A stretch of DNA of 62,827 nt, counting the filler, from Kipferlia bialata (lineage: Eukaryota): NCBI GenBank assembly GCA_003568945.1. It is 4 parts of 4 records of this genome, joined end to end, with 100 filler letters (N's around TTAATTAATTAA, not from the genome) between each part and the next. Parts side by side here need not be neighbours in the genome. Positions count along the whole stretch, not along the records: positions 22,841 to 45,507 come from BDIP01000284.1; 3 more parts are not named here. One strand, given 5' to 3'. The first letter of the stretch is position 1; every line of letters starts with the position of its first letter. Positions 3,677 to 45,450 of this stretch are shown piece by piece. Made by a program: the position numbers and the translations under genes. Below the pieces are notes generated by a model. It did not search any database and had not been told where the DNA came from. It saw only the letters and a program-made list of their open reading frames with translations.

Positions 3677-6600
3677 ATGGAGGCAGACGACTCCTCCGTA
3701 CCACAGGATTGGGCTGAGACCAGCTCCGTCCTGGTTTCCCTTGTGGAGACCATATGGGCTACTCTGGACCCCTCTAACATTGAGGAGGCTCAGTTAGATG
3801 ATGTTCCAGAGCTCTCTGCCATCCCAGAGCTGCTGGCAATGGTGGATGAGACCATTCAGAGCGATCCTACCCCTCAGAGGCTGAGGTTCCTGCTATTTGA
3901 GCTCCCCCACAACCTGGTGAGTGTTTCCGACTGTGACTACTATCCGCTTTGCACTCATACAGCTATACATCTGTACTAAGGTGACCTCTATGCATATATA
4001 TTATTGTCTGGTGAACAGGTGGGGTGATGTGTAAGCGTTGTGATAGTATACTGGACACATTTCAGTCATACTGAATGCCTGTCTCAATATATCACTGATG
4101 TGGTTCCTCTGCCATTCACACGATGTCGCATTCTGCTGCACTATTTCCAATGTCATTTGAGTATAGCTGTGTCTATGGACCGGAGTTGTGCATTGTGTGT
4201 CTTTGTTCTGCTTGACATATGATCTGACCTAACTTCCAGATCCGTCTTCTGTGCACTCTGATGAGTGACGACATGTACAACCACATTGACTCCCACACAT
4301 CCATGCAGGATGTGAACCAGACCCGCACAGTCTCCATGAGCGTCCTCTCCAGGTATAGCTTCGTCACTCTCTCTACCCATAGTACTTTGTGAGTGTATAT
4401 ATATGAGTCCACTCATCTACAGGACCTTTTCTGTGTGTTCCAGCCACACTGCCGAGACCCTCGCCTCAGAGATGTTCCCCCAACTCTATGCCTCCCTCAG
4501 CACTGATCTCATGAGGGAGTTCCTGAAGGCCGGTGAGTCATGTGTTCTCGAGAGAACAGCATATATCGTAGTGTATATATACCACTGCCATTCACCCCAG
4601 GTGGACTGAACAGTGTCATCTCTGTCCTCAGTGGAGAGGTGTCCATCGATGTCGACGAGGCACCCCTCAAGTGAGTATCGTCTCTCTCTCTCTCTGTCTT
4701 GTTACTCCTTGTAGCACCCTCTCATTCACACTCATGTGTGTATTCATTGTCCTATTCATTTTGTATGTATATCGAGAGTCCCAACACTCACCTCTTGGCG
4801 CATCCGCCTCATGTCCAGTATATGTATATCTATATCAATGTGTATATCATAGTATGTACATGCTAACATGCAGGCGCATCCGGCTCATGGCCGCTGGGTG
4901 CATCAGGGCTGTGCTCAAGAGCGATGCCGGCCTGACCGCTCTGTCCGTGCCCCCTGTCATGCAGGCCCTGGTGGCAGTGGCATCGGAGGAGGCAGACGCA
5001 GAGCTCAGGTAGGGATGGATATATAGAGCTATTGTAATATTTATATATATAGGGCTATTGGCATGCAGGCCCTGGTGGCAGTGGCATCGGAGGAGGCAGA
5101 CGCAGAGCTCAGGTGTGTACATAGAGTATGTACCCACATGGAGATACCTTTGCGTCCTATCAGTCCACCTGATACTCACCCCTAGGCAGTGGGCCCTTGT
5201 CCTCCTCCGTGACCTCACTGGTCACCTGCACTCCTCCAAGGTGTTCCAGAGCCCCCCTCTCCTCCTGAGGTGTGTAGTGCCATATGGATATATATATATG
5301 TATATACTCATTCACATACATGAGTATGGGGAGTAGTCTCTCTCTCTCTCTCTCGATCTATATATATATATGTGTCTCCCCTTGACCCCAGGGCTGTACG
5401 CACCCTTGTGGAGAGTGGCACAGCTGAGTGTGCCATCATGTCTCTGTGCCTAGACACATCGGAGGCAGTCAGGGCAGAGGGTGAGTGTGTTCACTATATA
5501 TCTCTACTATATGGATATATATATATATACACACATACATGTATATATATGTGTGAGCGCCATTATGTCTCTGTGATCGACGGCAGTCAGGGCGGAGGGT
5601 GCGTGTGTTTAGTATGTACACAAGTATTCATGTTCTCTTTCTCTATCTAGCTAAGGTGTCACTCTCACCCCCAGGCTGCGGTCTTCTGTCCGAGCTTCTC
5701 CTGGCTGCTGAGGACTGTGTCGTCTCTGCCCAGGAGAGATACGCACAGGGTGGGTGTATTTGGCGTGTTCAATGATATCTATACTGTTACTTATATGCAT
5801 GGGGTGGGTGTATTCGGCATGTTCAGTACTCAGCAGTGGTGTTTCTGTGTAGACTATGTACCTCTACTGTGTCCGTCTGACCCCCAGATGTGATGCAGGC
5901 ACAGAAGGACACCGAGAGGCTGCTGGCAGAGAGGGAGAGAGAGGTACGAAAGCAATGTCTCTCCCCCTTTCTCTATATATATAGTATACATACATACCCT
6001 CTCACCCCAGGGTGCCGACCCCGACTCCCCTGCCCCTGTGGTCTCTGGACCCAGTGACGCCACAGCTGTCGGGGCCAGGGAGCTTCTGGATAGGTATATA
6101 TATATTTCTTGACAGTGTATGCCAAGAGTAAGCATCCTCCCTTACCCCCCAGGCTCCTGCTGTCTGTGATCAGTGACCGCACCAGACCCACCCTGGACGA
6201 GGGAGAGGGAGAGGGAGAGGAGGCCCAGAGGCAGTTCAGCACGGCCCTGGTGGAGAGGATGGGTCTGGAGAAGTCCAGGATAGGCCTCGAGGCCCTGCTC
6301 TACCTGCTGTGCACCCTGCTCAGGGTGTCTGCCAGGTACAGTGTATATTTATATATATATATGTATATATTAGTAGAAGTAGATATACAGTAGTACATGG
6401 TGTACAGTGTTACCTGATTAGATTGTATATACTGACCCCCAGGCGTGCCCAGTCCAGCCCCCTCACCCTGTCCCTGCCCCCTACATACGAGGCATTCTGC
6501 GGGGAGGCACCTTCCATGGACGAGGGTGCGTATACAGCGACTCTCTCCCTTATGTATTAGCCTCTTCCTCACCCGTGGGTGCCTCTATGCCTTATGTATT

Positions 6601-22840: not shown

Positions 22841-22851
22841 ATATATATATA

Positions 22852-25800
22852 CCTGATGCCTCCAACAACGATAAAGGGTTCAGTCTCTCGGTGGATGGGA
22901 TGGACAGTCTCTTGCTGCGGTTGTGAGAGGGGCGCTGGGGGGTCTTGTCCCTGAAAGATTAGAAAACACAGAGGTACTAGCAATACAATATGCTGGGGGG
23001 TCTTGTCCCTGAGAGGTGTGAACAGCGATTAGATATGTTGGTGAATCATATTATACCAATTATCATTGTAAGAATATGGAATTTCTACTCTATATACACA
23101 TATGTTGGGGTCTTGTCCCTGTGGGAACAGTATTTAGAACAGCCAAGATGCACATGAATGAATAGTTATGTACCTAGACCCAAATGGCGACCAGCCACTG
23201 ACAGACATTCTCCTCTGGTCGATGTCGGTTGTCTCTTCAGAGGGACCATACCTAGTGTCAGTGTCATATATATATATAAATATATATAGATGATATACAT
23301 ATAGAGCCCACTGATACTGACCGAGGTCATCCTCGATGGGGTGAAAACATGGATGAAGTATATACATTGCTATACACACTGTTGCTATTGATAGCACTAC
23401 ATACCATTGAGTGGTGTCTGGCACCCTGTATGTCTCTCTCTCTCTCTCTCTCTCCCTCTCCCTCCTAGTCACCGATGGGGTCGGGAAGGGACGCCCAGTG
23501 TCGGAGTCCTTGACCAGGGACATGACCTGGGGTGTTAATTACTAGTATATATAATATTTAAATGTATATAATAATAAAATGTGTGTATATATATGTGTAT
23601 GTGAATATATGTGAGTCCTTGACCAGGGACATGACCTAGGAATCAATACTAGTATATGCACAAGATATATGAAAAATGTCGTATATATACATATATATAT
23701 GAGTCCCTGACAGGACCATGACCTGAGTGTTATATACACAACATGTACTTGCCCAGCTACTCAAAGTATATACATATCAATACAAACACTCTTACCTGCT
23801 TCAACAGATGGACGTATGTATTGAATGCATCTATCAAGGGATATATATATTCATGTATGCTAAATGTATACCTCGTCTCTCATCTGCTTCACCAGATGTA
23901 TTATATATATTGTAATAAAATACATTTATAAATATAATTATATTGTATTATATATATATTTATCAGATGTACACGTCCGTTGAATGCATCACTCAAGACA
24001 TTGACACATCTGTCATACGTATCTAGTGTAGTAAATCACTAAACCATATCTTACTTGTTTTAACAGATGTACATATCCATTGAATACATCACTCACAAGG
24101 AACACATCTGTATACAATACAATATACATGTACCTATATATATAGTAGTACACTAAGATACCTGTTTTAGTAACTGCACACATCCATTGAATGCATCACT
24201 CACTAGCGGGGGCAGGGGGTTGCCAGACATCAGCTGGGGTTAGTATATCGGTAAATAAATAATAGCAGATGGTTAATGTATACGTGTAATATACACTCTA
24301 CTACATGGGGCAGGGGGTTGCCAGACATGAGCTGGGGTCAGTATATAGGTCAATATATATAGGTAAATACATTAAGAAGACCGTAAGTGTATATATGCAT
24401 AACATATAAGGGCAGGGGGTTGCCAGACATGAGGTGATGTTAATATAAGACTGCAAGAGTGTAGACTGAGAAAGTGCATAGCGTGTAAATAAACACATAT
24501 ACACTAAACGTCGTAGCTATCAGGGGGGTTGCCAGACATGAGCTGGGGTTAGTATAAAGGTAAATACAAAATATCTATGTATATACTTCATATATTATAT
24601 GTTCAATACATACCTCTGATACCACTGCCCCGTGTAGATGTGTCAGTGTCTGGTGGCCATCCAGCACAAAGCACGTCAGGATATGCCTAAGGGTTATATG
24701 TATATATAACCTACATAATGTACTACATATATACACTATATATATACAAATCATTGTCTGTTGGCCATCCATGCCTGCAAATAAGACAGATTAAGAAACA
24801 TATATAATATACTATGTACTATGTACTATGTACTATGTATATATGTATAGCAGGTCAGGATATGCCTCAGGGTAAGACAGATTATACTACATATATAATA
24901 TACTATATACTATGTACTTTACATACATATATAGCAGGTCAGGATATGCCTGGCAGTCAGATAGCTATATATATATTTGTGGATGTGTATAGAAAGAGAG
25001 AGAGTGGCCACTCAGAATGTGTCAAAGGAGTACACATATTTGCACTATATGTACATATTATACTATGACTATGACTTATAGAGAGAGATTACCTGGTAAG
25101 TGGGCTGGACAGAGAGAGCACCATCGGAAACAGCTCCTCTCCCTCCCCCTCCCCCTCCCCCTCTCCTCCTACCCCGACACGTATATCTATGCTGCTCTCT
25201 GTGGGTGTGAGGGGTGGTGGCAGGGCCTCTCTCTCCCCCTCGCTCTCACTCTCTGACAGCCTGTTACCCCTCTCCAGATGGTCCCTGTCAAATGTACTAG
25301 ACACACTCCCCTCCCTTGAGAACATCCGAGTCTCAGTGGCAAAGAGAGCGTCACTGGTCCTATTGATTAGATGGTATCAGTATCAGTGAATACATATATA
25401 TACATATATATATAGAGAGAGAGAGAGAGGGAGAGAGAGAGGGGGAGAGAGAGGACGAGAGAGAAAGTTCACTGAATGAGAGGAAGTGTCTCAGTGGCAA
25501 AGAGAGCGTCGGGTAGGTGGAATGTCCATCATATATATATCATACACTCTTAATACCTCACACACAGCAGAGTCAGCTGTCCAAAGAGGTGTGTGTGATA
25601 TATACATACCTCACGCATAACAATGCCAGCTGTCCAAAGTGGTGTGTGATGGATGGTGACACCCTAGGGACAGAGGCAGAGGGGTGTCTGGGACTGTCAC
25701 CCGTAACAGACCGGGCATGCGAGTGGATGCCGGTCTGATGGTTAGAGAACAATATACACCCATATATACAGAAGGAGGAGGGGATGGGGGGGGACAGACC

Positions 25801-26111
25801 GGGCATGCGAGTGGATGCCGGTCTAGTGGTTAGATAGAGGTGCAAGCATGTCTAAGCGTAGAAGTATAACACAAGATACTACATATATTGAAGAGGGGGG
25901 GGGGGGGTGACAACATATATTCACACTCAACTATACACTACACAGGAGACCCACACATATGCCAATCCTCCCTCAGCAAGCAAGTAGCGGTATAACCCAA
26001 GTACACACAATGTGACATGGAGATACATACACAATATCGCCCTTCACATGCCTCTCCTTTACACTCATACACCTCTCAACTCACCAGAATGTCATTCAGA
26101 ACGTCCCGCAT
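22852..26111 (-). CDS. Mirror copy (left arm) of the 5' part of the gene starting at 36166
   Basis: Reverse complement of 36166-39425. Confidence 0.6.
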
Positions 26112-26222
26112 GGGACTACGCTAAAGGAACTAAGTCAATACGCTACTATCCCTATAGCCTCTGCAGTGTAAATAGGCTGTGTCAAATCACACAGGTGAGC
26201 TGATTGTTTTTTGCTCCATAAC

Positions 26223-26231
26223 TACACCCTT
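26223..26231. promoter_or_regulatory. Recurrent T(A/G)CACCCTT motif in a 240-bp divergent promoter
   Basis: The same motif lies near gene starts at 1467, 3559, 10203, 10264, 17369, 19814, 55663 and 62171. Confidence 0.5.
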
Positions 26232-26350
26232 TGTATACCATCAAGAAACAACACATAAAGGGTCTGGTGCCACAGTGCTTTCTCTAAGAGACAGCTGAAG
26301 ACTCCGAACCCAGGCTAGTGTTGCATAGCGTGTCACGCTGAGTGTGTGAT

Positions 26351-26996
26351 ATGGCTAGAAGAGCACCGCCAAGACCGAACAAGACGGCATTCAGGAGGTG
26401 AGTGTGCACTTGTGATGCATTGATTGAAGGCTTGATTGATATACAAGTCATAAAGTGAAAGGTAGTGTAGAGGGGGGAGAGGGCTGAGAGACAGAGGGGG
26501 AGGTTCAGCGTGTGTGAAGATGTCTGGTACCTGAGAGGAGCACTTCCCTTCTTCTAGTACTTCCATCTGCCGTCTCTCTATCCCACCTAGTAAACTTCCA
26601 TCTCTCTATCATTTTCTGCTGCCTAGTGAACTGTGTCCCCCCCCCCCCCAACCCCTATGGACCCCTACTCCACTATTATATGACATCCTTACGTGTGTGT
26701 ATGTAGATTGAGGGCCACTTGATCTACCTCACCAACTGTCTCCTGCTGTCTCTCTCTCTCTGTCAGGCTGTCTCTCTATCTCTCCGTAACACCATTCTCA
26801 CCCAGCCCTAGGGACCCCTTCAAATCTAAGCTTAGCACCGTCCTTCTATATGTTTTACTATTGTACTTCTATATTATTTGGATATTTGTCTTTATGTATT
26901 CATATTCTAAGTCTATGTCTTACACTCAGCCCTGTGGACCCCTCTAACTCCACTGCACTGACGGCACCAAGGACACCACAGGTACATGAGTATATG

Positions 26997-27035
<39 letters not shown>

Positions 27036-30008
27036 TTCAAGTTATTCGTCAGTCATCATCCCCCCCCCCCCCTCACTCTTCTAGCTCTGCCTATCTATAT
27101 GTATATATATAAGGTTTATATCTCGTTGATCCCGTGGTCATGCCAATATCCACAGCTATATTGTAAATATCTAAACACAAGTAATAATCAGTGTTATCGT
27201 TTACTTCCACAGTACCTTCTGTGCCTGTGTGTATATTACTATTAATTAATCATATATCTCTATCTCTTAATTATTAATTATATATCTCACCTCGGCGCCC
27301 CACCCGTATCATATATGTGTGTTTCTATATATGAGTCATCATTGTATTTATTACTTCCATAGTACCTTCTTGTGCATATTTGTTTCTCACCTCAGCGCCC
27401 CACCACCCGCGTCACTACACCATCGAGGCATGGCAGCACATCTAGGAGGTGAGTATATATATATATATATATATATAATATATTTGTGTGTATATATTCA
27501 AGTAAATGTGCATATAAATGAGGAATATATATATGTGTGTATGTGTGTGTATGTATACTACCCCATCGAGGCATGGCAGCACATCTAGGAGGTGAGGGTG
27601 ATTATACTTTTGTATATACTCTCTAGAGTAATTATTGGCATATGGGAGTTAACCCCTTCAGGTGCCCTTTGCACATAGTATGTATATGTTTACACACCCA
27701 CATAATCATGTTATCATATATCTACCATGTAATCATTATATATAGACATTCCCACCCGTCAGGCGTGCCTCCTCTGCCCAGATTATGTATATATATATTT
27801 ATATATATCTCCCTTTGTTAGGTGTGTATTTATGTATGAAAATACAATACAATACATTTGACTTACTTATGTTTATTCCATCCCACCCTTCAGGCGTGCC
27901 CCCTCTGCCCAGAGTCCCAACCCACTGCTGGCATCACCAGGTACTACTATACAGATGATATATACTCTATGGGGTATTATATACATATATATAGTTATGT
28001 GTATCCCAACCCATTGCTGGCATCGCCAGGTAGCCTATGATTTTTTGGATATGGATAATAATGAATACTTCTGTAATATCCCGGAAGATACTACTGTGTG
28101 AGTCCCAAGCAACTGCTGGCAGCACCAAGTACTAATAATCTCTTTATACATGCATATATGCGATGGCTTACCTAACGTCTGATCCATTAGTTATTGTCTA
28201 TATTGTATTATCCTTGTCCATCTAACCCCCCAGCCGTTGATGTGATTGGGGGCATGTCCACCAACAAGCCATTCCACAAGCAGACAAGGTACGTATATAC
28301 AGTGTTATCCATATATTGTAATCATATGTACTAACGAGGTCTTCCACAAGCAGACAAGGTACACAGATACATGCAGTCATTCATCAATACTTCCTTCATT
28401 AGTAATCATGTGCCATTATTCTAACACCAGATGCTGTAACTCCTTCCTCCGGTTCTTCAGCATATGTACTTACTCATTATATAGGTTAAGTATATACCCT
28501 CGCTTAGTGAATAGTTGTAACCCAAGGTGCTGGGACTCCTTCCTCCGGTTCTTCAGCTCCAGACTGAGTATACAGTATTATATATGTCTATATTTATGCC
28601 AGTATTGTTCCCCTATATATACCTCTAACCCCAGGTGCTGGGACTCCTTCCTCCGGTTCTTCAGCTTCCAGACTGTCTGTAACCTGATATGTCTCTCGAT
28701 CACACTGGCTGGGATATGGCTCAGAATGGAGTACTCAAGTGAGTATTTATATATGTATTGCGTATATATGTATAGAATAACAGTGATTGTATATGTCTGT
28801 CCATCACTCTGGCTGGGATATGGCTCAGAATGGAGTACTCCAGTGAGTATATATATTAATGTATATATATATGTGTGTGTTTGTGTGTGTATATATATAT
28901 TTAGTTGTATGGCTCAGGATGGAGTACTAAAGTTTGTATGTACACAGTACAGTATTACTCAATTATATTATGTGCATACCTCTCTCCTTCTCTCTCTCTC
29001 TCTCTTTCCTTATCTGTATCTCTCTCCTTAGCCCCTTATTCCAGAGTCTGAGGAGCGGTGGCTCCAGATTGTGGCCAAGATGACCTTCACCGTTGGCATA
29101 TTCTCTCTGTCAGGAGGCGTCACCAACGCCATTGCCATCAAGATGCTCTTTGACAGGTATTATGTCTCTCTCTCTCTCTCCAGATATATATATATTGGGT
29201 ATATGTACATACATATCATCTGTGTATATATATATATATATGTATTTACAGGTATATATGTCGCTCCTGATCTCTACGTAATTATGTTATATTTGTACTA
29301 TGCTTCTTGACAGGTCCGGATATCTCTCCCTCTTTATATATATTTGAGTATTTGTGTATGTATGTGTGTCAGATGCTCTTTGACAGGTATGGATAGGTGT
29401 GTGTCATAGCATTCTCTCTCACTCTTCTCTCCCGCACGGACCCTCTTTCAGAGTGTATTTGGAGATTGGATGTTACGTACTTGTATATTTGTACGTCTCA
29501 TCTTTTATTTCCCAATGATAAGTACACTCTCTGTATATATACATGTATTTCTATATCTCTATAGTGTACATGCTCTTTCCTCAGGGCTCTCTCTCTCTGT
29601 CTCTCTCTCTCTCTATATATATATATATTGACATATATGCTCTTACCTCAGGATATACCTCATGCCCCGTCTGTCCCTTCCTGGTAGTGGTATTATCCCA
29701 GAGAACTTCCAGAGCATCCGGTATGTCAATTGTACAATATATACTATATGATCATTGCCATATTATCCACCCATTGACAAATTGTACATATATTATGATT
29801 TTCATTTTCATCATTGATTATATTTCTAACTTCTATTATTGATACTTACCCTCAGGACATCCATCAAGCGCATGGTCATGGCCATGTTCTTCACCCCCCA
29901 GTTCCTGCAGTACTACATCAACAAGAAGGTGGGTGTAAGTGCATACACATATATATTTCTATATATTAGACACTAAGTGTTTAGAATGAGTTGGTATTTT
30001 GATATGTA

Positions 30009-30039
<31 letters not shown>

Positions 30040-31064
30040 CACCTCACCTCTCTGTCTCTCTCTCTCTGTCTCTCTCTCTCTGTCTCTCACCCTCAGGCTG
30101 GTGAGCTGACCTCCTCTCTGCAACTGGACACAAGGTGAGTGAATTATTATATATACTTACTATTCTATATACTACTATTACAATATATATTATACTATTA
30201 CATACTATACTATTTTATCCATACACTCTCTGCAGCTGGACACAAGGTGAGTGATATTTTATAGTTCCTCTACTGTATATACTCGTCAAACAATACACTG
30301 TCTGCTGCTGGACAATTCAATATAACTTTTGCAAAGATAGATGGCACATACAATATAATATACTCACACTCATACCAGGCTGAGACAGCTGTTGGAGCAG
30401 GACAGCATCGACAAGATCATAGGCCAGGTGAGGAGGGTGCATTATGTATAGATTATATATTTATATATATATGTGTAATGTTTATAGTTTAGTGATAAGA
30501 TCATAGGCCAGGTGAGGGTATTATGTTTGTGTATGGATTCTCATATATATATATAGTTAAGAGAGCCTAATTTTTGTCTAGACTGTATATCTGCATCTTA
30601 CCACCAGAAGCTAGCCGAGCTCAATGCTAGGCCAGAGGGACTGGCATTTAGGTGTGTCCCCCACAGAAATGTTAAGTTTAGCATTGGAGTTATTGGACAC
30701 TGACCCTATTGTCACTAGAGATATCAATATTATTACTATATATCTAATTATCATGCTCGTCTGACCTATTCATAACGTAAACGTCGCTATATTTTACTGG
30801 AAGAATAGTATGGATTACTTGCCTGGCTCTAGAATGACGGGTATCATATGATAGGATATGTGTATTTTATATACTTTGTGGTACATTATACATACTGCGT
30901 GTCTGACTGTATGATGGGCATCATTTGATAAGATATACCACAACATACTATATATACCATATACATTATACACTGCGTGTCTGACTCTAGAATGATGGGA
31001 ATCACCACTGAGCAGCTGAAACCTGCCCTGAAGCCATTCTTGGTGTCATTTGTGTGTGACTTAG
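26351..31064 (+). CDS. DUF445-family membrane protein, at least 12 exons, 3'-truncated at the palindrome axis
   Basis: MARRAPP... start; two TM segments, then GIFSLSGGVTNAIAIKMLFDR|IYLMPRLSLPGSGIIPENFQSIR|TSIKRMVMAMFFTP and KLAEL...MMGITTEQLKPALKPF. This resembles DUF445 (GxxTNxLAIxMLF...GSGVIP). Confidence 0.8.
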
Positions 31065-31212
31065 GTGAGTAACTGACTGAGTAATATGGTTATTAGTAGT
31101 CATTTCTCTCGCTCTCTCTCCTTATTTGTATACATATATATATGTATACAAATAAGGAGAGAGAGCGAGAGAAATGACTACTAATAACCATATTACTCAG
31201 TCAGTTACTCAC

Positions 31213-32237
31213 CTAAGTCACACACAAATGACACCAAGAATGGCTTCAGGGCAGGTTTCAGCTGCTCAGTGGTGATTCCCATCATTCTAGAGTCAGACAC
31301 GCAGTGTATAATGTATATGGTATATATAGTATGTTGTGGTATATCTTATCAAATGATGCCCATCATACAGTCAGACACGCAGTATGTATAATGTACCACA
31401 AAGTATATAAAATACACATATCCTATCATATGATACCCGTCATTCTAGAGCCAGGCAAGTAATCCATACTATTCTTCCAGTAAAATATAGCGACGTTTAC
31501 GTTATGAATAGGTCAGACGAGCATGATAATTAGATATATAGTAATAATATTGATATCTCTAGTGACAATAGGGTCAGTGTCCAATAACTCCAATGCTAAA
31601 CTTAACATTTCTGTGGGGGACACACCTAAATGCCAGTCCCTCTGGCCTAGCATTGAGCTCGGCTAGCTTCTGGTGGTAAGATGCAGATATACAGTCTAGA
31701 CAAAAATTAGGCTCTCTTAACTATATATATATATGAGAATCCATACACAAACATAATACCCTCACCTGGCCTATGATCTTATCACTAAACTATAAACATT
31801 ACACATATATATATAAATATATAATCTATACATAATGCACCCTCCTCACCTGGCCTATGATCTTGTCGATGCTGTCCTGCTCCAACAGCTGTCTCAGCCT
31901 GGTATGAGTGTGAGTATATTATATTGTATGTGCCATCTATCTTTGCAAAAGTTATATTGAATTGTCCAGCAGCAGACAGTGTATTGTTTGACGAGTATAT
32001 ACAGTAGAGGAACTATAAAATATCACTCACCTTGTGTCCAGCTGCAGAGAGTGTATGGATAAAATAGTATAGTATGTAATAGTATAATATATATTGTAAT
32101 AGTAGTATATAGAATAGTAAGTATATATAATAATTCACTCACCTTGTGTCCAGTTGCAGAGAGGAGGTCAGCTCACCAGCCTGAGGGTGAGAGACAGAGA
32201 GAGAGAGACAGAGAGAGAGAGACAGAGAGGTGAGGTG

Positions 32238-32268
<31 letters not shown>

Positions 32269-35241
32269 TACATATCAAAATACCAACTCATTCTAAACAC
32301 TTAGTGTCTAATATATAGAAATATATATGTGTATGCACTTACACCCACCTTCTTGTTGATGTAGTACTGCAGGAACTGGGGGGTGAAGAACATGGCCATG
32401 ACCATGCGCTTGATGGATGTCCTGAGGGTAAGTATCAATAATAGAAGTTAGAAATATAATCAATGATGAAAATGAAAATCATAATATATGTACAATTTGT
32501 CAATGGGTGGATAATATGGCAATGATCATATAGTATATATTGTACAATTGACATACCGGATGCTCTGGAAGTTCTCTGGGATAATACCACTACCAGGAAG
32601 GGACAGACGGGGCATGAGGTATATCCTGAGGTAAGAGCATATATGTCAATATATATATATATAGAGAGAGAGAGAGACAGAGAGAGAGAGCCCTGAGGAA
32701 AGAGCATGTACACTATAGAGATATAGAAATACATGTATATATACAGAGAGTGTACTTATCATTGGGAAATAAAAGATGAGACGTACAAATATACAAGTAC
32801 GTAACATCCAATCTCCAAATACACTCTGAAAGAGGGTCCGTGCGGGAGAGAAGAGTGAGAGAGAATGCTATGACACACACCTATCCATACCTGTCAAAGA
32901 GCATCTGACACACATACATACACAAATACTCAAATATATATAAAGAGGGAGAGATATCCGGACCTGTCAAGAAGCATAGTACAAATATAACATAATTACG
33001 TAGAGATCAGGAGCGACATATATACCTGTAAATACATATATATATATATATACACAGATGATATGTATGTACATATACCCAATATATATATATCTGGAGA
33101 GAGAGAGAGAGACATAATACCTGTCAAAGAGCATCTTGATGGCAATGGCGTTGGTGACGCCTCCTGACAGAGAGAATATGCCAACGGTGAAGGTCATCTT
33201 GGCCACAATCTGGAGCCACCGCTCCTCAGACTCTGGAATAAGGGGCTAAGGAGAGAGATACAGATAAGGAAAGAGAGAGAGAGAGAGAAGGAGAGAGGTA
33301 TGCACATAATATAATTGAGTAATACTGTACTGTGTACATACAAACTTTAGTACTCCATCCTGAGCCATACAACTAAATATATATATACACACACAAACAC
33401 ACACATATATATATACATTAATATATATACTCACTGGAGTACTCCATTCTGAGCCATATCCCAGCCAGAGTGATGGACAGACATATACAATCACTGTTAT
33501 TCTATACATATATACGCAATACATATATAAATACTCACTTGAGTACTCCATTCTGAGCCATATCCCAGCCAGTGTGATCGAGAGACATATCAGGTTACAG
33601 ACAGTCTGGAAGCTGAAGAACCGGAGGAAGGAGTCCCAGCACCTGGGGTTAGAGGTATATATAGGGGAACAATACTGGCATAAATATAGACATATATAAT
33701 ACTGTATACTCAGTCTGGAGCTGAAGAACCGGAGGAAGGAGTCCCAGCACCTTGGGTTACAACTATTCACTAAGCGAGGGTATATACTTAACCTATATAA
33801 TGAGTAAGTACATATGCTGAAGAACCGGAGGAAGGAGTTACAGCATCTGGTGTTAGAATAATGGCACATGATTACTAATGAAGGAAGTATTGATGAATGA
33901 CTGCATGTATCTGTGTACCTTGTCTGCTTGTGGAAGACCTCGTTAGTACATATGATTACAATATATGGATAACACTGTATATACGTACCTTGTCTGCTTG
34001 TGGAATGGCTTGTTGGTGGACATGCCCCCAATCACATCAACGGCTGGGGGGTTAGATGGACAAGGATAATACAATATAGACAATAACTAATGGATCAGAC
34101 GTTAGGTAAGCCATCGCATATATGCATGTATAAAGAGATTATTAGTACTTGGTGCTGCCAGCAGTTGCTTGGGACTCACACAGTAGTATCTTCCGGGATA
34201 TTACAGAAGTATTCATTATTATCCATATCCAAAAAATCATAGGCTACCTGGCGATGCCAGCAATGGGTTGGGATACACATAACTATATATATGTATATAA
34301 TACCCCATAGAGTATATATCATCTGTATAGTAGTACCTGGTGATGCCAGCAGTGGGTTGGGACTCTGGGCAGAGGGGGCACGCCTGAAGGGTGGGATGGA
34401 ATAAACATAAGTAAGTCAAATGTATTGTATTGTATTTTCATACATAAATACACACCTAACAAAGGGAGATATATATAAATATATATATACATAATCTGGG
34501 CAGAGGAGGCACGCCTGACGGGTGGGAATGTCTATATATAATGATTACATGGTAGATATATGATAACATGATTATGTGGGTGTGTAAACATATACATACT
34601 ATGTGCAAAGGGCACCTGAAGGGGTTAACTCCCATATGCCAATAATTACTCTAGAGAGTATATACAAAAGTATAATCACCCTCACCTCCTAGATGTGCTG
34701 CCATGCCTCGATGGGGTAGTATACATACACACACATACACACATATATATATTCCTCATTTATATGCACATTTACTTGAATATATACACACAAATATATT
34801 ATATATATATATATATATATATACTCACCTCCTAGATGTGCTGCCATGCCTCGATGGTGTAGTGACGCGGGTGGTGGGGCGCTGAGGTGAGAAACAAATA
34901 TGCACAAGAAGGTACTATGGAAGTAATAAATACAATGATGACTCATATATAGAAACACACATATATGATACGGGTGGGGCGCCGAGGTGAGATATATAAT
35001 TAATAATTAAGAGATAGAGATATATGATTAATTAATAGTAATATACACACAGGCACAGAAGGTACTGTGGAAGTAAACGATAACACTGATTATTACTTGT
35101 GTTTAGATATTTACAATATAGCTGTGGATATTGGCATGACCACGGGATCAACGAGATATAAACCTTATATATATACATATAGATAGGCAGAGCTAGAAGA
35201 GTGAGGGGGGGGGGGGGATGATGACTGACGAATAACTTGAA

Positions 35242-35280
<39 letters not shown>

Positions 35281-35926
35281 CATATACTCATGTACCTGTG
35301 GTGTCCTTGGTGCCGTCAGTGCAGTGGAGTTAGAGGGGTCCACAGGGCTGAGTGTAAGACATAGACTTAGAATATGAATACATAAAGACAAATATCCAAA
35401 TAATATAGAAGTACAATAGTAAAACATATAGAAGGACGGTGCTAAGCTTAGATTTGAAGGGGTCCCTAGGGCTGGGTGAGAATGGTGTTACGGAGAGATA
35501 GAGAGACAGCCTGACAGAGAGAGAGAGACAGCAGGAGACAGTTGGTGAGGTAGATCAAGTGGCCCTCAATCTACATACACACACGTAAGGATGTCATATA
35601 ATAGTGGAGTAGGGGTCCATAGGGGTTGGGGGGGGGGGGGACACAGTTCACTAGGCAGCAGAAAATGATAGAGAGATGGAAGTTTACTAGGTGGGATAGA
35701 GAGACGGCAGATGGAAGTACTAGAAGAAGGGAAGTGCTCCTCTCAGGTACCAGACATCTTCACACACGCTGAACCTCCCCCTCTGTCTCTCAGCCCTCTC
35801 CCCCCTCTACACTACCTTTCACTTTATGACTTGTATATCAATCAAGCCTTCAATCAATGCATCACAAGTGCACACTCACCTCCTGAATGCCGTCTTGTTC
35901 GGTCTTGGCGGTGCTCTTCTAGCCAT
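31213..35926 (-). CDS. Mirror copy (right arm) of the DUF445 gene fragment
   Basis: Reverse complement of 26351-31064. Confidence 0.7.
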
Positions 35927-36165
35927 ATCACACACTCAGCGTGACACGCTATGCAACACTAGCCTGGGTTCGGAGTCTTCAGCTGTCTCTTAGAGAAAGC
36001 ACTGTGGCACCAGACCCTTTATGTGTTGTTTCTTGATGGTATACAAAGGGTGTAGTTATGGAGCAAAAAACAATCAGCTCACCTGTGTGATTTGACACAG
36101 CCTATTTACACTGCAGAGGCTATAGGGATAGTAGCGTATTGACTTAGTTCCTTTAGCGTAGTCCC

Positions 36166-39100
36166 ATGCGGGACGTTCTGAATGACATTCTGGTGAGTTG
36201 AGAGGTGTATGAGTGTAAAGGAGAGGCATGTGAAGGGCGATATTGTGTATGTATCTCCATGTCACATTGTGTGTACTTGGGTTATACCGCTACTTGCTTG
36301 CTGAGGGAGGATTGGCATATGTGTGGGTCTCCTGTGTAGTGTATAGTTGAGTGTGAATATATGTTGTCACCCCCCCCCCCCCTCTTCAATATATGTAGTA
36401 TCTTGTGTTATACTTCTACGCTTAGACATGCTTGCACCTCTATCTAACCACTAGACCGGCATCCACTCGCATGCCCGGTCTGTCCCCCCCCATCCCCTCC
36501 TCCTTCTGTATATATGGGTGTATATTGTTCTCTAACCATCAGACCGGCATCCACTCGCATGCCCGGTCTGTTACGGGTGACAGTCCCAGACACCCCTCTG
36601 CCTCTGTCCCTAGGGTGTCACCATCCATCACACACCACTTTGGACAGCTGGCATTGTTATGCGTGAGGTATGTATATATCACACACACCTCTTTGGACAG
36701 CTGACTCTGCTGTGTGTGAGGTATTAAGAGTGTATGATATATATATGATGGACATTCCACCTACCCGACGCTCTCTTTGCCACTGAGACACTTCCTCTCA
36801 TTCAGTGAACTTTCTCTCTCGTCCTCTCTCTCCCCCTCTCTCTCTCCCTCTCTCTCTCTCTCTATATATATATGTATATATATGTATTCACTGATACTGA
36901 TACCATCTAATCAATAGGACCAGTGACGCTCTCTTTGCCACTGAGACTCGGATGTTCTCAAGGGAGGGGAGTGTGTCTAGTACATTTGACAGGGACCATC
37001 TGGAGAGGGGTAACAGGCTGTCAGAGAGTGAGAGCGAGGGGGAGAGAGAGGCCCTGCCACCACCCCTCACACCCACAGAGAGCAGCATAGATATACGTGT
37101 CGGGGTAGGAGGAGAGGGGGAGGGGGAGGGGGAGGGAGAGGAGCTGTTTCCGATGGTGCTCTCTCTGTCCAGCCCACTTACCAGGTAATCTCTCTCTATA
37201 AGTCATAGTCATAGTATAATATGTACATATAGTGCAAATATGTGTACTCCTTTGACACATTCTGAGTGGCCACTCTCTCTCTTTCTATACACATCCACAA
37301 ATATATATATAGCTATCTGACTGCCAGGCATATCCTGACCTGCTATATATGTATGTAAAGTACATAGTATATAGTATATTATATATGTAGTATAATCTGT
37401 CTTACCCTGAGGCATATCCTGACCTGCTATACATATATACATAGTACATAGTACATAGTACATAGTATATTATATATGTTTCTTAATCTGTCTTATTTGC
37501 AGGCATGGATGGCCAACAGACAATGATTTGTATATATATAGTGTATATATGTAGTACATTATGTAGGTTATATATACATATAACCCTTAGGCATATCCTG
37601 ACGTGCTTTGTGCTGGATGGCCACCAGACACTGACACATCTACACGGGGCAGTGGTATCAGAGGTATGTATTGAACATATAATATATGAAGTATATACAT
37701 AGATATTTTGTATTTACCTTTATACTAACCCCAGCTCATGTCTGGCAACCCCCCTGATAGCTACGACGTTTAGTGTATATGTGTTTATTTACACGCTATG
37801 CACTTTCTCAGTCTACACTCTTGCAGTCTTATATTAACATCACCTCATGTCTGGCAACCCCCTGCCCTTATATGTTATGCATATATACACTTACGGTCTT
37901 CTTAATGTATTTACCTATATATATTGACCTATATACTGACCCCAGCTCATGTCTGGCAACCCCCTGCCCCATGTAGTAGAGTGTATATTACACGTATACA
38001 TTAACCATCTGCTATTATTTATTTACCGATATACTAACCCCAGCTGATGTCTGGCAACCCCCTGCCCCCGCTAGTGAGTGATGCATTCAATGGATGTGTG
38101 CAGTTACTAAAACAGGTATCTTAGTGTACTACTATATATATAGGTACATGTATATTGTATTGTATACAGATGTGTTCCTTGTGAGTGATGTATTCAATGG
38201 ATATGTACATCTGTTAAAACAAGTAAGATATGGTTTAGTGATTTACTACACTAGATACGTATGACAGATGTGTCAATGTCTTGAGTGATGCATTCAACGG
38301 ACGTGTACATCTGATAAATATATATATAATACAATATAATTATATTTATAAATGTATTTTATTACAATATATATAATACATCTGGTGAAGCAGATGAGAG
38401 ACGAGGTATACATTTAGCATACATGAATATATATATCCCTTGATAGATGCATTCAATACATACGTCCATCTGTTGAAGCAGGTAAGAGTGTTTGTATTGA
38501 TATGTATATACTTTGAGTAGCTGGGCAAGTACATGTTGTGTATATAACACTCAGGTCATGGTCCTGTCAGGGACTCATATATATATGTATATATACGACA
38601 TTTTTCATATATCTTGTGCATATACTAGTATTGATTCCTAGGTCATGTCCCTGGTCAAGGACTCACATATATTCACATACACATATATATACACACATTT
38701 TATTATTATATACATTTAAATATTATATATACTAGTAATTAACACCCCAGGTCATGTCCCTGGTCAAGGACTCCGACACTGGGCGTCCCTTCCCGACCCC
38801 ATCGGTGACTAGGAGGGAGAGGGAGAGAGAGAGAGAGAGAGAGACATACAGGGTGCCAGACACCACTCAATGGTATGTAGTGCTATCAATAGCAACAGTG
38901 TGTATAGCAATGTATATACTTCATCCATGTTTTCACCCCATCGAGGATGACCTCGGTCAGTATCAGTGGGCTCTATATGTATATCATCTATATATATTTA
39001 TATATATATATGACACTGACACTAGGTATGGTCCCTCTGAAGAGACAACCGACATCGACCAGAGGAGAATGTCTGTCAGTGGCTGGTCGCCATTTGGGTC

Positions 39101-42100
39101 TAGGTACATAACTATTCATTCATGTGCATCTTGGCTGTTCTAAATACTGTTCCCACAGGGACAAGACCCCAACATATGTGTATATAGAGTAGAAATTCCA
39201 TATTCTTACAATGATAATTGGTATAATATGATTCACCAACATATCTAATCGCTGTTCACACCTCTCAGGGACAAGACCCCCCAGCATATTGTATTGCTAG
39301 TACCTCTGTGTTTTCTAATCTTTCAGGGACAAGACCCCCCAGCGCCCCTCTCACAACCGCAGCAAGAGACTGTCCATCCCATCCACCGAGAGACTGAACC
39401 CTTTATCGTTGTTGGAGGCATCAGGTATATATATATNNCACCGAGAGACTGAACCCTTTATCGTTGTTGGAGGCATCAGGTATATATATATATTAATAAT
39501 GTAGATATTCCACCGAGAGATGGAACCCTTTGTCACTGTTGGAGGCATCAGGTGTGATTATGTATACATCATAAATGATTGATATAGGATAAATGCAGAG
39601 ATATATACTAATACATAGTGTCTACAGAGACACTGAACCCTTTGTCGTTGCTCGCAGCATCAGGCATATTGTATATACATATAGTTAAGACAGGGTATAT
39701 TGGTACCCTCTTTTGAGATGTCTCTCAAGTAGGTGTCTCTTGTGTTTTCTCTCTATACATGTATCGATATATATAGCTATAGTTCTGTATAGTAGTTATC
39801 TTTGTGTATGTATATATAGCTAATCCCCAGGAAAGGGCAACCAGAGAATCTAATATACGTGTATATGTACATATATACATATATATATCTCATAGTATAT
39901 GTGTTAGTCTAATCAGTAGTTTAGTAGTATATACATATAGTATATATATGTGTTAGTCTTATCAGTAGGTAAGGGCAACCAGCTCAGAGAGAGTACATAT
40001 ATGTAAAGTATATACGTATACGTATCAATGTACATATATTCAGTTTCATTAGTAGTTTACATATCGATAGATATGTTAGTCTTATCAGTAGGTAAGGGCA
40101 ACCAGCTCAGAGAGGCCATTGAGAGAGAGCTTGAGAGAGAGAGACTGGGAGAGAGCCAGAGAGAGAGCAGCGCAGTGTGGCTGAGCGAGCCAAGGTAACG
40201 CTTCTCTCTCTCTCTCTGTAAAAAAGAAAAAATTAATTCTTATCTTCTCCTCGTCTATCCCCTCTATCCTCTCCGCCTAGCCCCTTTTATACCAGTTATA
40301 GTGGTACCCAGGGCCAAGAGGACTCCAAGTCGTCCAAGCCTGACCTTCCATTTCCACCCACAGATGCAAGGTATCAACAAGCTCTCTATAGTAGTTCATA
40401 TTCACCTGTTTGATACATAAATATTCCCAAATCTTATATATATACTCAATCTTGGATATGAACCCTCACCCTTCGAAATACTTCATATATATAATTCCCC
40501 AACCCTTAGAGTCCTTTGGAAGAGGGAAGGTATCAAGGTCCTATTAATTGCAGCATCCAGTTTATTGTGTTATATTCCCCTCACCCTCAGGGTGCTCAAG
40601 AAGACCCTGTCTGAGTATGAAGGCACCACAGACCCATATGAACGGTGCTTCACAGACGACTTCCTCAATAGGTGGGGATATCTCTCTCTCTCCCTCTCCC
40701 ACTCTGCGTGTGTGCGTCACTTTAGGCAACCCAAGTTTGAGGTGTCTCTCTAATTCCCTATATCTACCTCACCCTAGGCTACAGGCCACGCACCTCCCCA
40801 TGTATGAGAACATCTCTCTCTCTCTCTGTCTCTCTATCTCTCTCTCTCCCTCTCTCATTTTAGGCTCCAAGCGACGCACCTCCCCATGTATGAGAACATT
40901 GTACACACTGGCACTGGTGTTGTCAGTGTCAAGAAGGGAACGGTGACTGGGAAGAAGTATTACAGGTATATATATGTGTGTGTGTGTGTTTAAGTCTTTT
41001 AGGAGAGTATAATAGGTAAGAATATTTCTGTATGTGGTAAGGATATATGGTAAAATAACATATCTGAACAGACCTAACCCCAGCGCTGCCCTTGTCATCA
41101 CCAACCGCCGTCTCCTTCTGCTGGACCCCTATTGTCTGCCTGAGCCTGAGGACCAGTCCCCCAGTCCATCGCCACAGAGTGCATCCAGAAGTCACAGCAG
41201 GTATATAGTGTGTATACGATATACCTATATATAGATACTCTATTATATGATGTATTATATGTTTGTTTGTTCTCGTCCCCACAGAGTGCATAGCAGGTGA
41301 GTACTGTGTATATATACTATGTATAATATACAGTGTATAATATATCACCCGAGACTGCATCCAGGAGTCACAACATGTATATAGTGTGGATCTATCACTC
41401 TATGTGTCTTTAGTATAATTCTCACAGTCACGAGGAGCAGTCTAGCTGAGACTGTTTGTCATCACATGTATTGTATCCATAAATATCTCACACTAGGCGT
41501 GGTTCTCTAGCTGAGACTGTGGGTCACCACCGTAAGGGCAGGGGCATATATATATATGAATGTCTATATAGTCTGACAAGCAGGAGAGGTTCCCTNNNNN
41601 NNNNNNNNNNNNNNNNNNNNNNNNNNNNNNNNNNNNNNNNNNNNNNNNNNNNNNNNNNNNNNNNNNNNNNNNNNNNNNNNNNNNNNNNNNNNNNNNNNNN
41701 NNNNNNNNNNNNNNNNNNNNNNNNNNNNNNNNNNNNNNNNNNNNNNNNNNNNNNNNNNNNNNNNNNNNNNNNNNNNNNNNNNNNNNNNNNNNNNNNNNNN
41801 NNNNNNNNNNNNNNNNNNNNNNNNNNNNNNNNNNNNNNNNNNNNNNNNNNNNNNNNNNNNNNNNNNNNNNNNNNNNNNNNNNNNNNNNNNNNNNNNNNNN
41901 NNNNNNNNNNNNNNNNNNNNNNNNNNNNNNNNNNNNNNNNNNNNNNNNNNNNNNNNNNNNNNNNNNNNNNNNNNNNNNNNNNNNNNNNNNNNNNNNNNNN
42001 NNNNNNNNNNNNNNNNNNNNNNNNNNNNNNNNNNNNNNNNNNNNNNNNNNNNNNNNNNNNNNNNNNNNNNNNNNNNNNNNNNNNNNNNNNNNNNNNNNNN

Positions 42101-44841
42101 NNNNNNNNNNNNNNNNNNNNNNNNNNNNNNNNNNNNNNNNNNNNNNNNNNNNNNNNNNNNNNNNNNNNNNNNNNNNNNNNNNNNNNNNNNNNNNNNNNNN
42201 NNNNNNNNNNNNNNNNNNNNNNNNNNNNNNNNNNNNNNNNNNNNNNNNNNNNNNNNNNNNNNNNNNNNNNNNNNNNNNNNNNNNNNNNNNNNNNNNNNNN
42301 NNNNNNNNNNNNNNNNNNNNNNNNNNNNNNNNNNNNNNNNNNNNNNNNNNNNNNNNNNNNNNNNNNNNNNNNNNNNNNNNNNNNNNNNNNNNNNNNNNNN
42401 NNNNNNNNNNNNNNNNNNNNNNNNNNNNNNNNNNNNNNNNNNNNNNNNNNNNNNNNNNNNNNNNNNNNNNNNNNNNNNNNNNNNNNNNNNNNNNNGTGTA
42501 TGGGCCTGGGGGCCAGTCCGGCACTGACAAGGAGTAAGCACAGAAAGGTACTCTATGTATTTTCCATATGCTTACATATATTTGTAATTTCGTATAAAAT
42601 CAAACATATGAAAATTCAATACAGTCCTCTGTAGTTTTAGTGGGAGTACCCTTTCAGCATCTCCCCTTACTCTCTATCTCTCCCTTTAGCTACATATACA
42701 TACTCATACCAGTCCTCTGGCAGTAACAGTGGGAGTGCCAGTGCTCTTGCTGCGTCTGAGCCACTGCCAGACAACTGCCTCAATGGTATGAGTATACTAT
42801 TATATATACTATTATACTATTATATATATATATATATATAACTGAGCCACTACCAGACAACTGCCTCAATGGTATGATGCAACGATTACTCTATACTATA
42901 TGTTTATGTATATATCTCCAATTCCCAGGTGTCATTGACCTATCCACTGTAGTCACTGTATACTGTAGTTTCCTACATATATACATATTTGTGTATGTAG
43001 CTATTATACTTATCATATCTGACAATAGGTGTCATTGACCTATCCACTGTAGTCACTGTCTCCTCCAAGGAGAAGGGACCCGGTCTCACGTGTATAGTGC
43101 TTACACTGAGGGTATGACGTGTTTTCCTCTTCCCATAGCCTGGTACTCATGAGTCCATTGTTCTAAGCTGTTACCCCCCCCCCCCATCTCCCCCTCAATC
43201 TATATTTGTATACATATGTGTGGGTATTCATACAAGTTTTTCTAACCCCAGGATACTCCCACCCGGCATGGCATCCACCCCCCATCCAGACTGGTCACCT
43301 CCTGTGCATCGGACCACTCCACACACACACTCAAGATACTTGTATCCAGGAGGGTGGCTCAGGTGTATACAGATGTAGAAGACAAATATTATATTTATAT
43401 ATGAATATATATATATAATTATTTAGTTAGTGGTAAAATAGATACATCACACTCAAGAGGTATCTATACATATATATATGTATATATAGATGTACTTAAC
43501 CCCAGGACATCAAGCTCCTCCTCCTGGCCACATTCAATGAGAGGGCAGCGGAGAGACAGCAGTACATATCTCAGGTATGCACAGTATTCATATATATTGA
43601 TATATACATTTTCTCTCTCTACATTTCATATTGTTCTCTCACTCCCTAGGCGACTAGCCGGTCAGAGTCTGGTCTAGTCTTCGACTTTGTATGCCGGCTG
43701 GCCCACTCAGCCGTACGCTGTACGTCCACCGTTCGTAGAACGTCAAAGGAGCCGACCTCCTTTATGGTTGTGCCTGGTGACCCCCTCTCTCTCTCCCCCT
43801 CCCCCCTCTCCACATTGTGTGACATGCATAGTGTGAGGAGTCCAGGTGACGTGTCAACACTATTCGGTGATGATCAGACAGAGGAAGAGACAGGGAGAGA
43901 GAGGGGTAGCAAGGATAAGAAGAAGAAGGTGGTTGCAACCAGCAAGACTGGAGAGAGAGAGGGTGATGTGGTGATTGAGGGTATCAGTCACGGTGTCAAG
44001 GCCGTGACGTTCATAGTACGCCAGGGGGGCAAGGTCTACTCTGCCTCTCTGGATCTTAGCGCCATATCCCACCCTGGTACGGTTCTGTCTTCAGATGTAT
44101 GAATACATGTAGATTGTCTCTCTCTATATATATAGACTTCACATTGTTTTCAGGATTTGGCCTAACTTGGCTACATATGTATTGTGTGTGTGTATACCTG
44201 AGGTATGTATACAATATTCGTACATTTACTAACTGTAGGTCTCAACAGTGGCAGTGGTGTGTTTGACTCTGGCACCGCTGTGACAGATGACAGGGTGGGG
44301 TACAAGGGGACGGCATTCGTGCTATCAGCCGAAATGACAGGTATATATATACTCTATACTAGTCTAATTATTTGTCACAGTGTATATTTGTATATATGTA
44401 TGAAGAGAGAGAGAGGGGGTGGGGTACAAGGGCACAGCATTTGTCAGCGAGATGACAGGTATATACTGATACAGTTCTCTTCATCAGTATATATTTATGT
44501 AAATAGATGGATGGGGTGCGAGGGAACAGTCTTGTCCACTGAAATAGGTAGGTTCCCAATATTTTTTTGTATCATACCGATGTCCCTTACCCCCAGGCTG
44601 GCTAGTTCTTGAGAATATAGTATTGATATATTGTTATTAAGAATAATATAATACATTATTATCTGTTTGTATCATACCGATGTCCCTTACCCTCAGGCTG
44701 GCTAGTTCTTGAGGAGTTCCCCTCCACCCCCTCCCCCTCCACCATCGATGTGCACAGAGAGAAGGAGAGAGAGAGTACGGAGAAGAAGCCACTCAACCAC
44801 AGCCCCTCTGCGCCTAAATCCCCACCATCCAGGTACTGCAA

Positions 44842-44880
<39 letters not shown>

Positions 44881-45450
44881 CACCCCTAATATCAGAGCGT
44901 GGCTGACGAGTGACTCCCCCGGTGTATACTCTAGGAGCACTGAGTCTCTGCTGTCTCTCTCATACTCATCCCCCGGACCAACGCCAATGCACAGCAGAAT
45001 AGGTATATTATGTGTATAGTATACACAAATTTGTGCAATATCATACATCTGCCTGACCCCCCCCGGGCCGGTCTGACTTATTGAAATATAGTATTACTCA
45101 ATGTATGTAAATATTTCTCCTATCTGACGAATAATATTGGTGTCCTCTCTCTATATATACATTGTATTGTTAGATACATATATGTACATCTGACCCCAGG
45201 CCGGTCTGACCGGGACAGGCGGCATCGGATGCCGAGGACACCCCAGGTGAATATTGTGGTGCAAATATTTCTGGATATATACTATATATATTGTACTATA
45301 TATACTATATATATTGTATATAGATACCTATGATGCCAATGACACTCCAGGTGATTATTTATATACATACATGTATATGTGTATAAATATATGTATGCGT
45401 ATGTATTCATATACACTAGGTTTTCATTTCTGATCCCAGGAGGTTCTCCG

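Follow-up and report, generated by a model that had tools for sequence, protein, structure and literature searches.

How does an intron come to hold displaced copies of the exon ends beside it, each with a splice signal of its own, and how does splicing choose among them? The question is raised by two adjacent genes of Kipferlia bialata, a free-living fornicate in whose genome 124,912 introns are annotated (PMC5874029), within a window of 62,827 nt, the whole stretch of DNA analysed here. The window consists of four K. bialata scaffolds with stop-codon linkers at 22785, 45552, and 59898, and the copies, called echoes below, were studied on the scaffold at 22841-45507. The pattern they form is real, dense, local, and partly unexplained.

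In the two focal genes, 42 echoes are found in 20 of the 34 introns by a scan with exon-only queries, which include no shared splice motif and have a null rate of 0.16% per query. The same scan finds an echo in 3 of 96 introns predicted in 16 other genes by a spliced open-reading-frame predictor trained on the two focal genes, not on RNA. The sequence-only reading that first described echoes placed them in most introns, which holds for the two focal genes and fails elsewhere; dense echoes are a local feature of two adjacent genes, and highly spliced genes nearby are without them. Exon heads are copied only into the upstream intron, as acceptor echoes (14/34), and exon tails only into the downstream intron, as donor echoes (12/34); in introns with both kinds, the donor echoes precede the acceptor echoes in 8 of 8. 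In the focal genes, wrong-side copies (0/68), inverted copies (0/136), and copies two introns away (0/124) are absent. Between 31139 and 45507, 59 complex direct-repeat pairs lie no more than 450 nt apart, compared with 0-1 in each of 10 local shuffles. The junction itself is reached by 38 of 45 copies (the two focal genes plus 3 elsewhere), and exon-internal segments 45-90 nt from a junction give a single match in 119, of low complexity. Furthermore, intron length follows 109 + 106 x the number of echoes over 130 introns, and none of the 67 introns shorter than 100 nt carries an echo. A junction-duplicating process that lengthens introns, as originally proposed, is thereby borne out, and the growth of introns that it brings, about 106 nt with each event, can be counted directly in a lineage that lacks classical end-joining.

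The echoes are placed by the following models of the two genes.

36166-36192, 36543-36667, 36918-37184, 37591-37663, 38044-38115, 38751-38872, 39026-39103, 39327-39424, 40092-40194, 40296-40370, 40591-40671, 40864-40965, 41084-41200, 41497-41543, + strand: 5' half of one echo-bearing gene, 14 exons, an open 462-codon frame with the outermost copy of every site used.
42497-42547, 42713-42785, 43029-43111, 43252-43362, 43506-43574, 43650-44076, 44239-44340, 44697-44832, and predicted 44896-45002, 45200-45246, + strand: 3' half of the same gene, past an N gap (KIPB_001889, P0001), an exact spliced match to P0001.
31213..35990, - strand: the neighbouring DUF445 gene (KIPB_001886, P0002), 13 exons, by exact mapping of P0002; its mirror at 26287-31064 (+) belongs to a probable assembly palindrome.

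Echoes are present in 9 of the 12 introns of the DUF445 gene. The public model KIPB_001887 has exons 1-4 in common with the 14-exon model and ends on an echo at 37735. We take this end to be a likely prediction error; echoes thus appear to mislead gene models. Exon 14 of the 14-exon model appears to close with a GC donor at 41543/41544, and the RNA depth of the bin fits.

An assembly artefact, in which the assembler concatenated alleles or repeats, is hardly credible as the source of the pattern. The scaffold does hold one exact copy flanking a gap and a perfect 8.3-kb inverted duplication, 22841-39436, centred on the TA run 31138/31139 and ending at the NN gap. Contig depth is equal inside and outside this palindrome, not doubled, and one contig continues beyond its centre. 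The palindrome is therefore treated as an assembly error, which it probably is and which also cuts the DUF445 gene after the exon 13 donor, and each echo is counted once: the mirrored copy (31139-35990 or 22841-31138) was left out, one being kept per test, and the exact copy at 39439-39491 was masked in all echo counts. The contig comparison covers 31139-45250 and the assembled contigs, among the matches listed, of run X1 (DNA) and run X2, which is presumed to be RNA of the same sample and whose contigs do join at GT-AG. A single X1 contig spans 37148-38805, including four echo clusters, without differences or gaps, and further X1 contigs cover 33723-34710 and 43498-44831; contig depths are 329-439, like the rest of the scaffold. 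X1 is possibly the source of the assembly, in which case it provides a second assembly of perhaps the same reads and not a second sample. Divergence also varies by degrees among the echoes, mostly between 0 and 20%, and their series number up to four copies, which does not suit concatenation. Hence the series sit on one assembled molecule, and the possibility of concatenated alleles, for which the sequence-only reading had asked a check on reads, is made very improbable by the contigs.

The motifs quoted in that reading occur where it placed them, with small corrections. CCCCAGCT[CG]ATG is found at 37729, 37940, and 38038, and in the copy at 37843 the AG is replaced by AC. AGGTCATG stands at 38553, 38640, and 38749, the 38553 copy being diverged and not a full 25-mer; AGGGACAAGACCCC stands at 39157, 39267, and 39325, and AAGGGCAACCAG at 39833, 39971, and 40094. 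The pairs 42756/42842, 42927/43027, and 44566/44666 are present as quoted, the pair 45229/45332 is one base off, and the first donor echo of exon 5 begins at 38178. The echoes of the plus-strand gene, together with those of a gene on another scaffold, are as follows.

36455..36483, + strand: acceptor echo of exon 2, 29/29 identical, AG kept; skipped by RNA contig 11.
36682-36720, + strand: donor echo of exon 2, GT kept; intron joined across by RNA contig 11.
36767-36789, + strand: acceptor echo of exon 3, AG lost; intron joined across by RNA contig 11.
37328..37526 (37328, 37412, 37506), + strand: acceptor echoes of exon 4, three in all; the first two are followed by homologous spacers and form a true head-to-tail unit of 84 nt; inside the X1 contig 37148-38805.
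37735..37983 (37735, 37844, 37946), + strand: three acceptor echoes of exon 5, by alignment.
38178..38664 (38178, 38282, 38446; 38555, 38642), + strand: three donor echoes of exon 5, then two acceptor echoes of exon 6, by alignment.
39159..39285 (39159, 39269), + strand: two acceptor echoes of exon 8, by alignment.
39439..39491, + strand: exact 53-nt copy right behind the NN gap, a probable scaffolding artefact, excluded.
39509..39991 (39509, 39621; 39831, 39969), + strand: a pair of donor echoes from exon 8 and a pair of acceptor echoes from exon 9; at 39969 the unit repeats head-to-tail for about 120 nt.
40778..40813, + strand: exon 12 acceptor echo, differing at 3 sites, each synonymous.
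41276..41465 (41276, 41344; 41441), + strand: two donor echoes of exon 13 and one acceptor echo of exon 14, by alignment.
42625, within 42625..42959, + strand: old acceptor echo, by alignment.
42842-42871, + strand: donor echo, 29/30 identical.
42929-42959, + strand: acceptor echo, 31/31 identical, intron side unrelated.
44417-44458, + strand: donor echo, 4 differences, all synonymous, plus deletions.
44597-44613, + strand: acceptor echo, 37 nt of intron side shared.
45067..45350, + strand: acceptor echo 45067 and donor echo 45332-45350 of exon 45200-45246, by alignment.
4798..5598 (4798 acceptor; 5063-5112 donor; 5559 donor), + strand: three echoes of a gene on another scaffold; 5063-5112 is 50/50 identical, with an unrelated spacer.

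Junction-spanning pairs also lie on other scaffolds at 56181/56321, 5748/5802, and 1849/1936, one of them nearly all intron-side; the process is thus not confined to the focal scaffold.

In 40 well-aligned echoes, the exon part measures 12-45 nt with a median of 24 (12-50 nt overall, plus intron bases), and neighbouring copies are separated by 53-230 nt (median 103, quartiles 88-123). On the exon side, 93 of 1050 sites differ from the parent, an identity of about 91%; on the intron side, identity is 88% at donor +3 and down to background by +9. The nearest echo is less diverged than the farthest in 8 of 14 series, more diverged in 3, and tied in 3. The spacers, described earlier as unique, are so in the majority: with 2 of 41 echoes left out for short or N-containing spacers, 3 of 39 spacers are homologous (z>2) to their tandem partner (1 of 19 among near-identical echoes), and whole-unit homology is limited to a few introns. 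Since 36 of 39 spacers are unrelated to the expected partner, the echoes are mostly not head-to-tail repeats of one whole unit.

Plain head-to-tail tandem duplications of 50-200 nt, kept where they straddle a junction and followed by fast divergence of the AT-rich spacers around a persisting GC-rich exon piece, are accordingly a quite unlikely origin. Whole-unit homology of the kind that they would leave is clear in intron T-3, over 84 nt, and in T-8, over about 120 nt, and partial in T-4, in 44341-44696, and in DUF445 intron 12; in these introns the spacers differ far more than the exon parts. The mean spacer z is 0.32 (p=0.047), and the TATA density of the focal introns is twice that of others. 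However, the spacer signal disappears without 3 pairs (p=0.27), and intron-side homology is detectable in 10-11 of 40 echoes, about 25%, compared with 52-99% of pairs in simulated tandem duplications with up to 30-fold more indels. The exon part is also less than half of the spacing in 39 of the 40 echoes, and intron-only copies are missing: after echo masking, 9 repeat clusters remain, comprising 5 CT microsatellites, 3 echo-attached clusters, and 1 acceptor-tail copy, none of them independent, at a simulated power of 0.31-0.80. Outside the 5 introns with visible unit homology, the spacers have 11 8-mers in common with their own intron against 8.7 expected, no excess over other introns.

The decoy character attributed to the echoes is well founded. 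The GT survives in 15 of the 16 donor echoes and the AG in 20 of the 24 acceptor echoes, and the scores of 8 donors and 17 acceptors lie in the range seen at true sites. The echo scores at least as high as the used site in 9 of 24 acceptors and 5 of 16 donors, the echoes at 42929, 39831, and 26653 outscoring their parent acceptors, and echo signals are weaker than those of the parents on average (p=0.015 for donors, 0.039 for acceptors). Despite such competition, a natural case of its kind, the outermost sites are used, as shown at three introns and consistent at more. In RNA contig 11, exon 2 starts from the last acceptor, 36543, and 36667 is joined to 36918 past a donor and an acceptor echo. 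RNA contig 12 displays gaps of 70 and 100 nt, an exact fit to the first donor 44340 and the last acceptor 44697, so that the echoes 44417-44458 and 44597-44613 are skipped by exact length; if exons 7-13 use outermost sites, its total length puts its beginning at the exon 6 GA run. Among the matches listed, no RNA covers exons 4 and 5, the exons on either side of the lead examples of the earlier description, and the echo sites 37735..37983 (the exon 5 acceptor series) and 38178..38664 lie outside the RNA-covered junctions. Of 22 depth bins with echoes, 11 fit the outermost-site model within 0.5, 3 are without RNA cover, and 8 have surplus depth; this check concerns consistency only, as absent cover proves nothing, exon ends are partly fitted, and several surplus bins hold microsatellites. 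The contigs also drop rare splice forms. Organisms with short introns are expected to pick the sites closest across the intron, whereas exon definition pairs the sites nearest across the exon (PMC9225289); outermost-site use in Kipferlia contrasts with the former expectation. Of 174 surveyed spliceosomal proteins, 87 are present in K. bialata (PMC6679479).

A splicing-coupled or functional origin, by junction-directed breaks, by RNA-templated repair, or by retention of echoes as decoys, alternative sites, or recursive sites, is improbable. Copies that reach the junction in 38 of 45 cases, with identity at background within about 8 nt of the donor, would suit it, as would the 5 of 24 acceptor echoes that read AG/GT as possible zero-length recursive sites, the echo 37735 used by KIPB_001887, and the DUF445 contigs that break at the exon 3/4 junction beside one depth bin with an unexplained surplus. 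Nevertheless, use of the echo site is predicted to give an internal stop in 25 and a frameshift in 11 of 38 cases and to keep an open frame in 2, and the joined contigs skip the echoes; a general role as alternative or recursive sites, which had been suggested, is not sustained. mRNA is not the template because the copies include intron bases. The weaker echo signals, the decay of echoes towards AT (30 vs 11 replacement changes), and the absence of the pattern from highly spliced genes nearby point the same way.

The two frame-keeping echoes (204 and 108 nt inserts) both lie in DUF445 intron 5, 33711-33846 (mirror 28431-28566). The AG/GT acceptor echoes are those at 38555, 38642, 39969, 42929, and 28527, which read so because the exon begins with GT; that at 39969 reads AG/GTAAGG, the form of a recursive splice site. 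At 34686-34906 (mirror 27396-27591), two DUF445 RNA contigs share a 30-nt overlap exactly at the exon 3/4 junction, in a bin of surplus depth; double placement of one contig would also explain this. In that intron 3, the sole acceptor of the form AG/GC-not-G lies in a donor echo, where its use would create a micro-exon of 21 nt, in frame, at a weak score of 2.0.

As to how the echoes arose, staggered breaks straddling the splice junction, repaired with filler DNA and tolerated through cross-exon splice-site pairing, are tentatively preferred. All steps of this origin are ones that we infer. Two offset nicks would fall one in the exon end and the other a few bases into the intron; both ends would then be filled in, and 50-110 nt of filler would link them, plausibly through polymerase theta. 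Events wholly inside exons would be purged, and copies with GT or AG would survive if the exon-proximal copy still splices. The echoes likely persist because splice sites are paired across the exon and the copy to which the whole exon is still joined is the one used. The displaced copy would decay towards AT, and repeated events would stack echoes, the nearest tending to be the youngest. Such breaks with filler explain the direct collinear copies, the unrelated spacers, and the weaker used acceptors. The median score of used acceptors is 2.5 with an echo and 6.4 without (17 vs 17, p=0.023), as expected if the used site lies on new DNA and the old signal is kept by the echo. PolQ is present and Ku70 absent in K. 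bialata (PMC8516963), paired nicks give tandem duplications, sometimes with inserts, via polymerase theta (PMC5730883), and staggered breaks with insertions lengthen Daphnia introns according to the available part of PMC4202315.

Several points weigh against breaks with filler. Used donors with an echo show no weakening (p=0.35), and a normal acceptor score is reached in only about 7% of random intron DNA. Random breaks should leave intron-only copies, none of which was found as an independent case at the power given above, so the break model needs unexplained targeting or fast erasure. The sequence beside the break is not derived from the echo as templated filler would be (p=0.62), some units are plainly head-to-tail, and a filler of 50-110 nt exceeds the 1-68 nt found in the part of PMC2671141 available. 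Neither PARP1 nor XRCC1 is listed for K. bialata (PMC8516963). Moreover, a skew of echo-exon differences towards synonymous sites is not predicted unless the used exon was later swapped with another allele. Why breaks concentrate at exon ends and in two genes is unexplained by this origin.

This skew is suggestive, not settled. With neutral decay of the echo and a fully constrained parent, the ratio of fourfold to zerofold differences should be at most 2. The ratio is 3.3 over 54 alignments and 3.9 for the nearest echo at 36 junctions (bootstrap 2.1-7.9), where 25/173 fourfold and 23/622 zerofold sites differ. Synonymous differences number 63 and replacement differences 51, with p between 0.001 and 0.035, or 0.04-0.06 in the most conservative simulation, the mutation spectrum being taken from the replacement differences. 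The skew is weaker at the farthest echoes (2.7, p=0.2 against 2), at single-echo junctions (2.8, p=0.26), and between echoes (2.0). It implies that for some time after the split both lineages, that of the echo and that of the exon, remained coding, either by copying from another allele or by exchange of the used exon through later recombination. If genome-wide, such a skew would estimate allelic diversity and recombination from a single genome. CpG decay was considered as its cause and rejected, with 8 of 13 parent CpG differences being transversions; CpG is depleted alike in exons and introns throughout the window (observed/expected 0.32-0.39).

Offset recombination between diverged alleles would supply one cause for the skew, which is strongest at the nearest echo, and is itself unlikely. 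Invasion in exon homology, copying of about 100 nt across the junction, and end-joining would write the exon end twice, each time followed by a different allele's intron. This would account for the absence of intron-only copies, the intron-sized spacers, and the presence of acceptor-like signals on each copy in 11 pairs that are no more than 50% alike (p about 1e-5 on each side). In Daphnia, non-homologous introns occur at one site in different alleles (PMC4202315, in the part available), and no close paralogue was found as another donor of the copies in homologue and 50%-cluster searches. However, allelic introns would have to be unalignable next to exons less than 10% different, and echoes that are 50/50 and 31/31 identical have unrelated spacers. 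Used acceptors of normal strength are predicted where weaker ones are observed, and the echo-to-echo ratio is no higher than 2.0. In a wider formulation, possible and rather doubtful, exon ends would be the specific substrate, and an echo would be either a displaced, once-working exon end of another allele or the product of a junction-targeted break. The genome would then keep, layer upon layer, the traces of recombination between hyper-diverged alleles, and its reduced, short-intron spliceosome would pick sites across exons, ignoring intact, sometimes stronger, intron-proximal ones.

Among known systems, the tolerance of echoes resembles that of F7-type repeats and their probable origin that of Daphnia insertions, and a defining test fails for each. 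The statement that no named system matches was too strong, since the F7/CBS/LMNB2 minisatellites, the Daphnia insertions, and repair-mediated duplications are each partly close. In the part available of PMC1557585, junction-spanning minisatellites (human F7 IVS7 with 37 bp, CBS IVS13, 6-16, LMNB2, and PDGF) likewise reiterate a donor and a bit of exon downstream, and the most upstream copy is the only or the main one used, first-donor choice being shown for F7. The splice site is reiterated in Kipferlia as well (GT 15/16, AG 20/24), and use of the exon-proximal site fits where contigs join or lengths match, exons 4-5 being without cover. In contrast, these minisatellites are head-to-tail, confined to single introns, and donor-side only, whereas Kipferlia has mostly unrelated spacers, with whole-unit repetition in 3/39 spacers and a few introns, 12-50 nt of exon, copies on both sides, and 20/34 introns affected. 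The staggered-break insertions at Daphnia pulex neointrons share with Kipferlia direct repeats that flank novel DNA and repeated lengthening, but the Daphnia repeats, as given in the available part of PMC4202315, measure 4-17 nt and arrive with new introns; those of Kipferlia are several times longer and lie on existing junctions, with no intron gain shown. Repair-mediated duplications or doublets of vertebrates (PMC2671141, in part) combine short nearby copies with filler and include some splice sites and partial exons. They may land as far as 5 kb off and in inverted orientation, whereas the echoes are all direct, collinear, and within one intron, about 100 nt from the next; capture by synthesis-dependent strand annealing (SDSA), independent of side and orientation, does not agree with 0/68 wrong-side and 0/136 inverted copies.

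The tandem genomic duplication of exon AGGT is likewise a local duplication with a splice-like site, and its repeat brackets a new intron, with one copy at each end (PMC3443670 and PMC2891723, in the parts available). Direct repeats of at least 6 nt at intron ends occur here in 1/34 focal and 2/96 other introns, no excess over a null of about 4.5%, and the earlier rejection of this model stands. Introners are also intron-sized inserts with a duplicated target, of 3-9 bp in the available part of PMC9860276; within the window, no complex match that would define an insert family is found among 82 spacer pieces, and 7-nt inverted ends occur in 2/82, compared with a null of 1.9%. No description of the echo geometry, or of such repeats in Kipferlia, was found in the open-access literature searched, and the accessible text of the K. 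bialata genome paper (PMC5874029) makes no mention of 'duplicat'.

P0001 matches no Pfam family, and a relative is missing from 1.84 billion representatives, the 50%-cluster search returning only the protein itself. In P0002, DUF445 is the sole Pfam match, below the curated cut-off. Homologue searches, restricted to longer proteins, returned nothing beyond the window's own annotated hypothetical proteins KIPB_001889, KIPB_001886, and KIPB_001887. With 14.6 introns per kb of coding sequence, the DUF445 gene at 31213-35990 ranks among the most intron-dense of the window, and five homologous metagenome loci (L001-L005), obtained with the DUF445 protein as the query, have no introns in the matched part and are not Kipferlia-like. 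Elsewhere in the window, translation yields five predicted genes, which we take to resemble a SET-like protein (690-1426), a C2H2 zinc-finger protein (11551-14413), an SBDS-like protein (18364-19513), a PWI-domain SR-related splicing protein (20262-22040), and an asparagine-synthetase-like protein (60089-61703).

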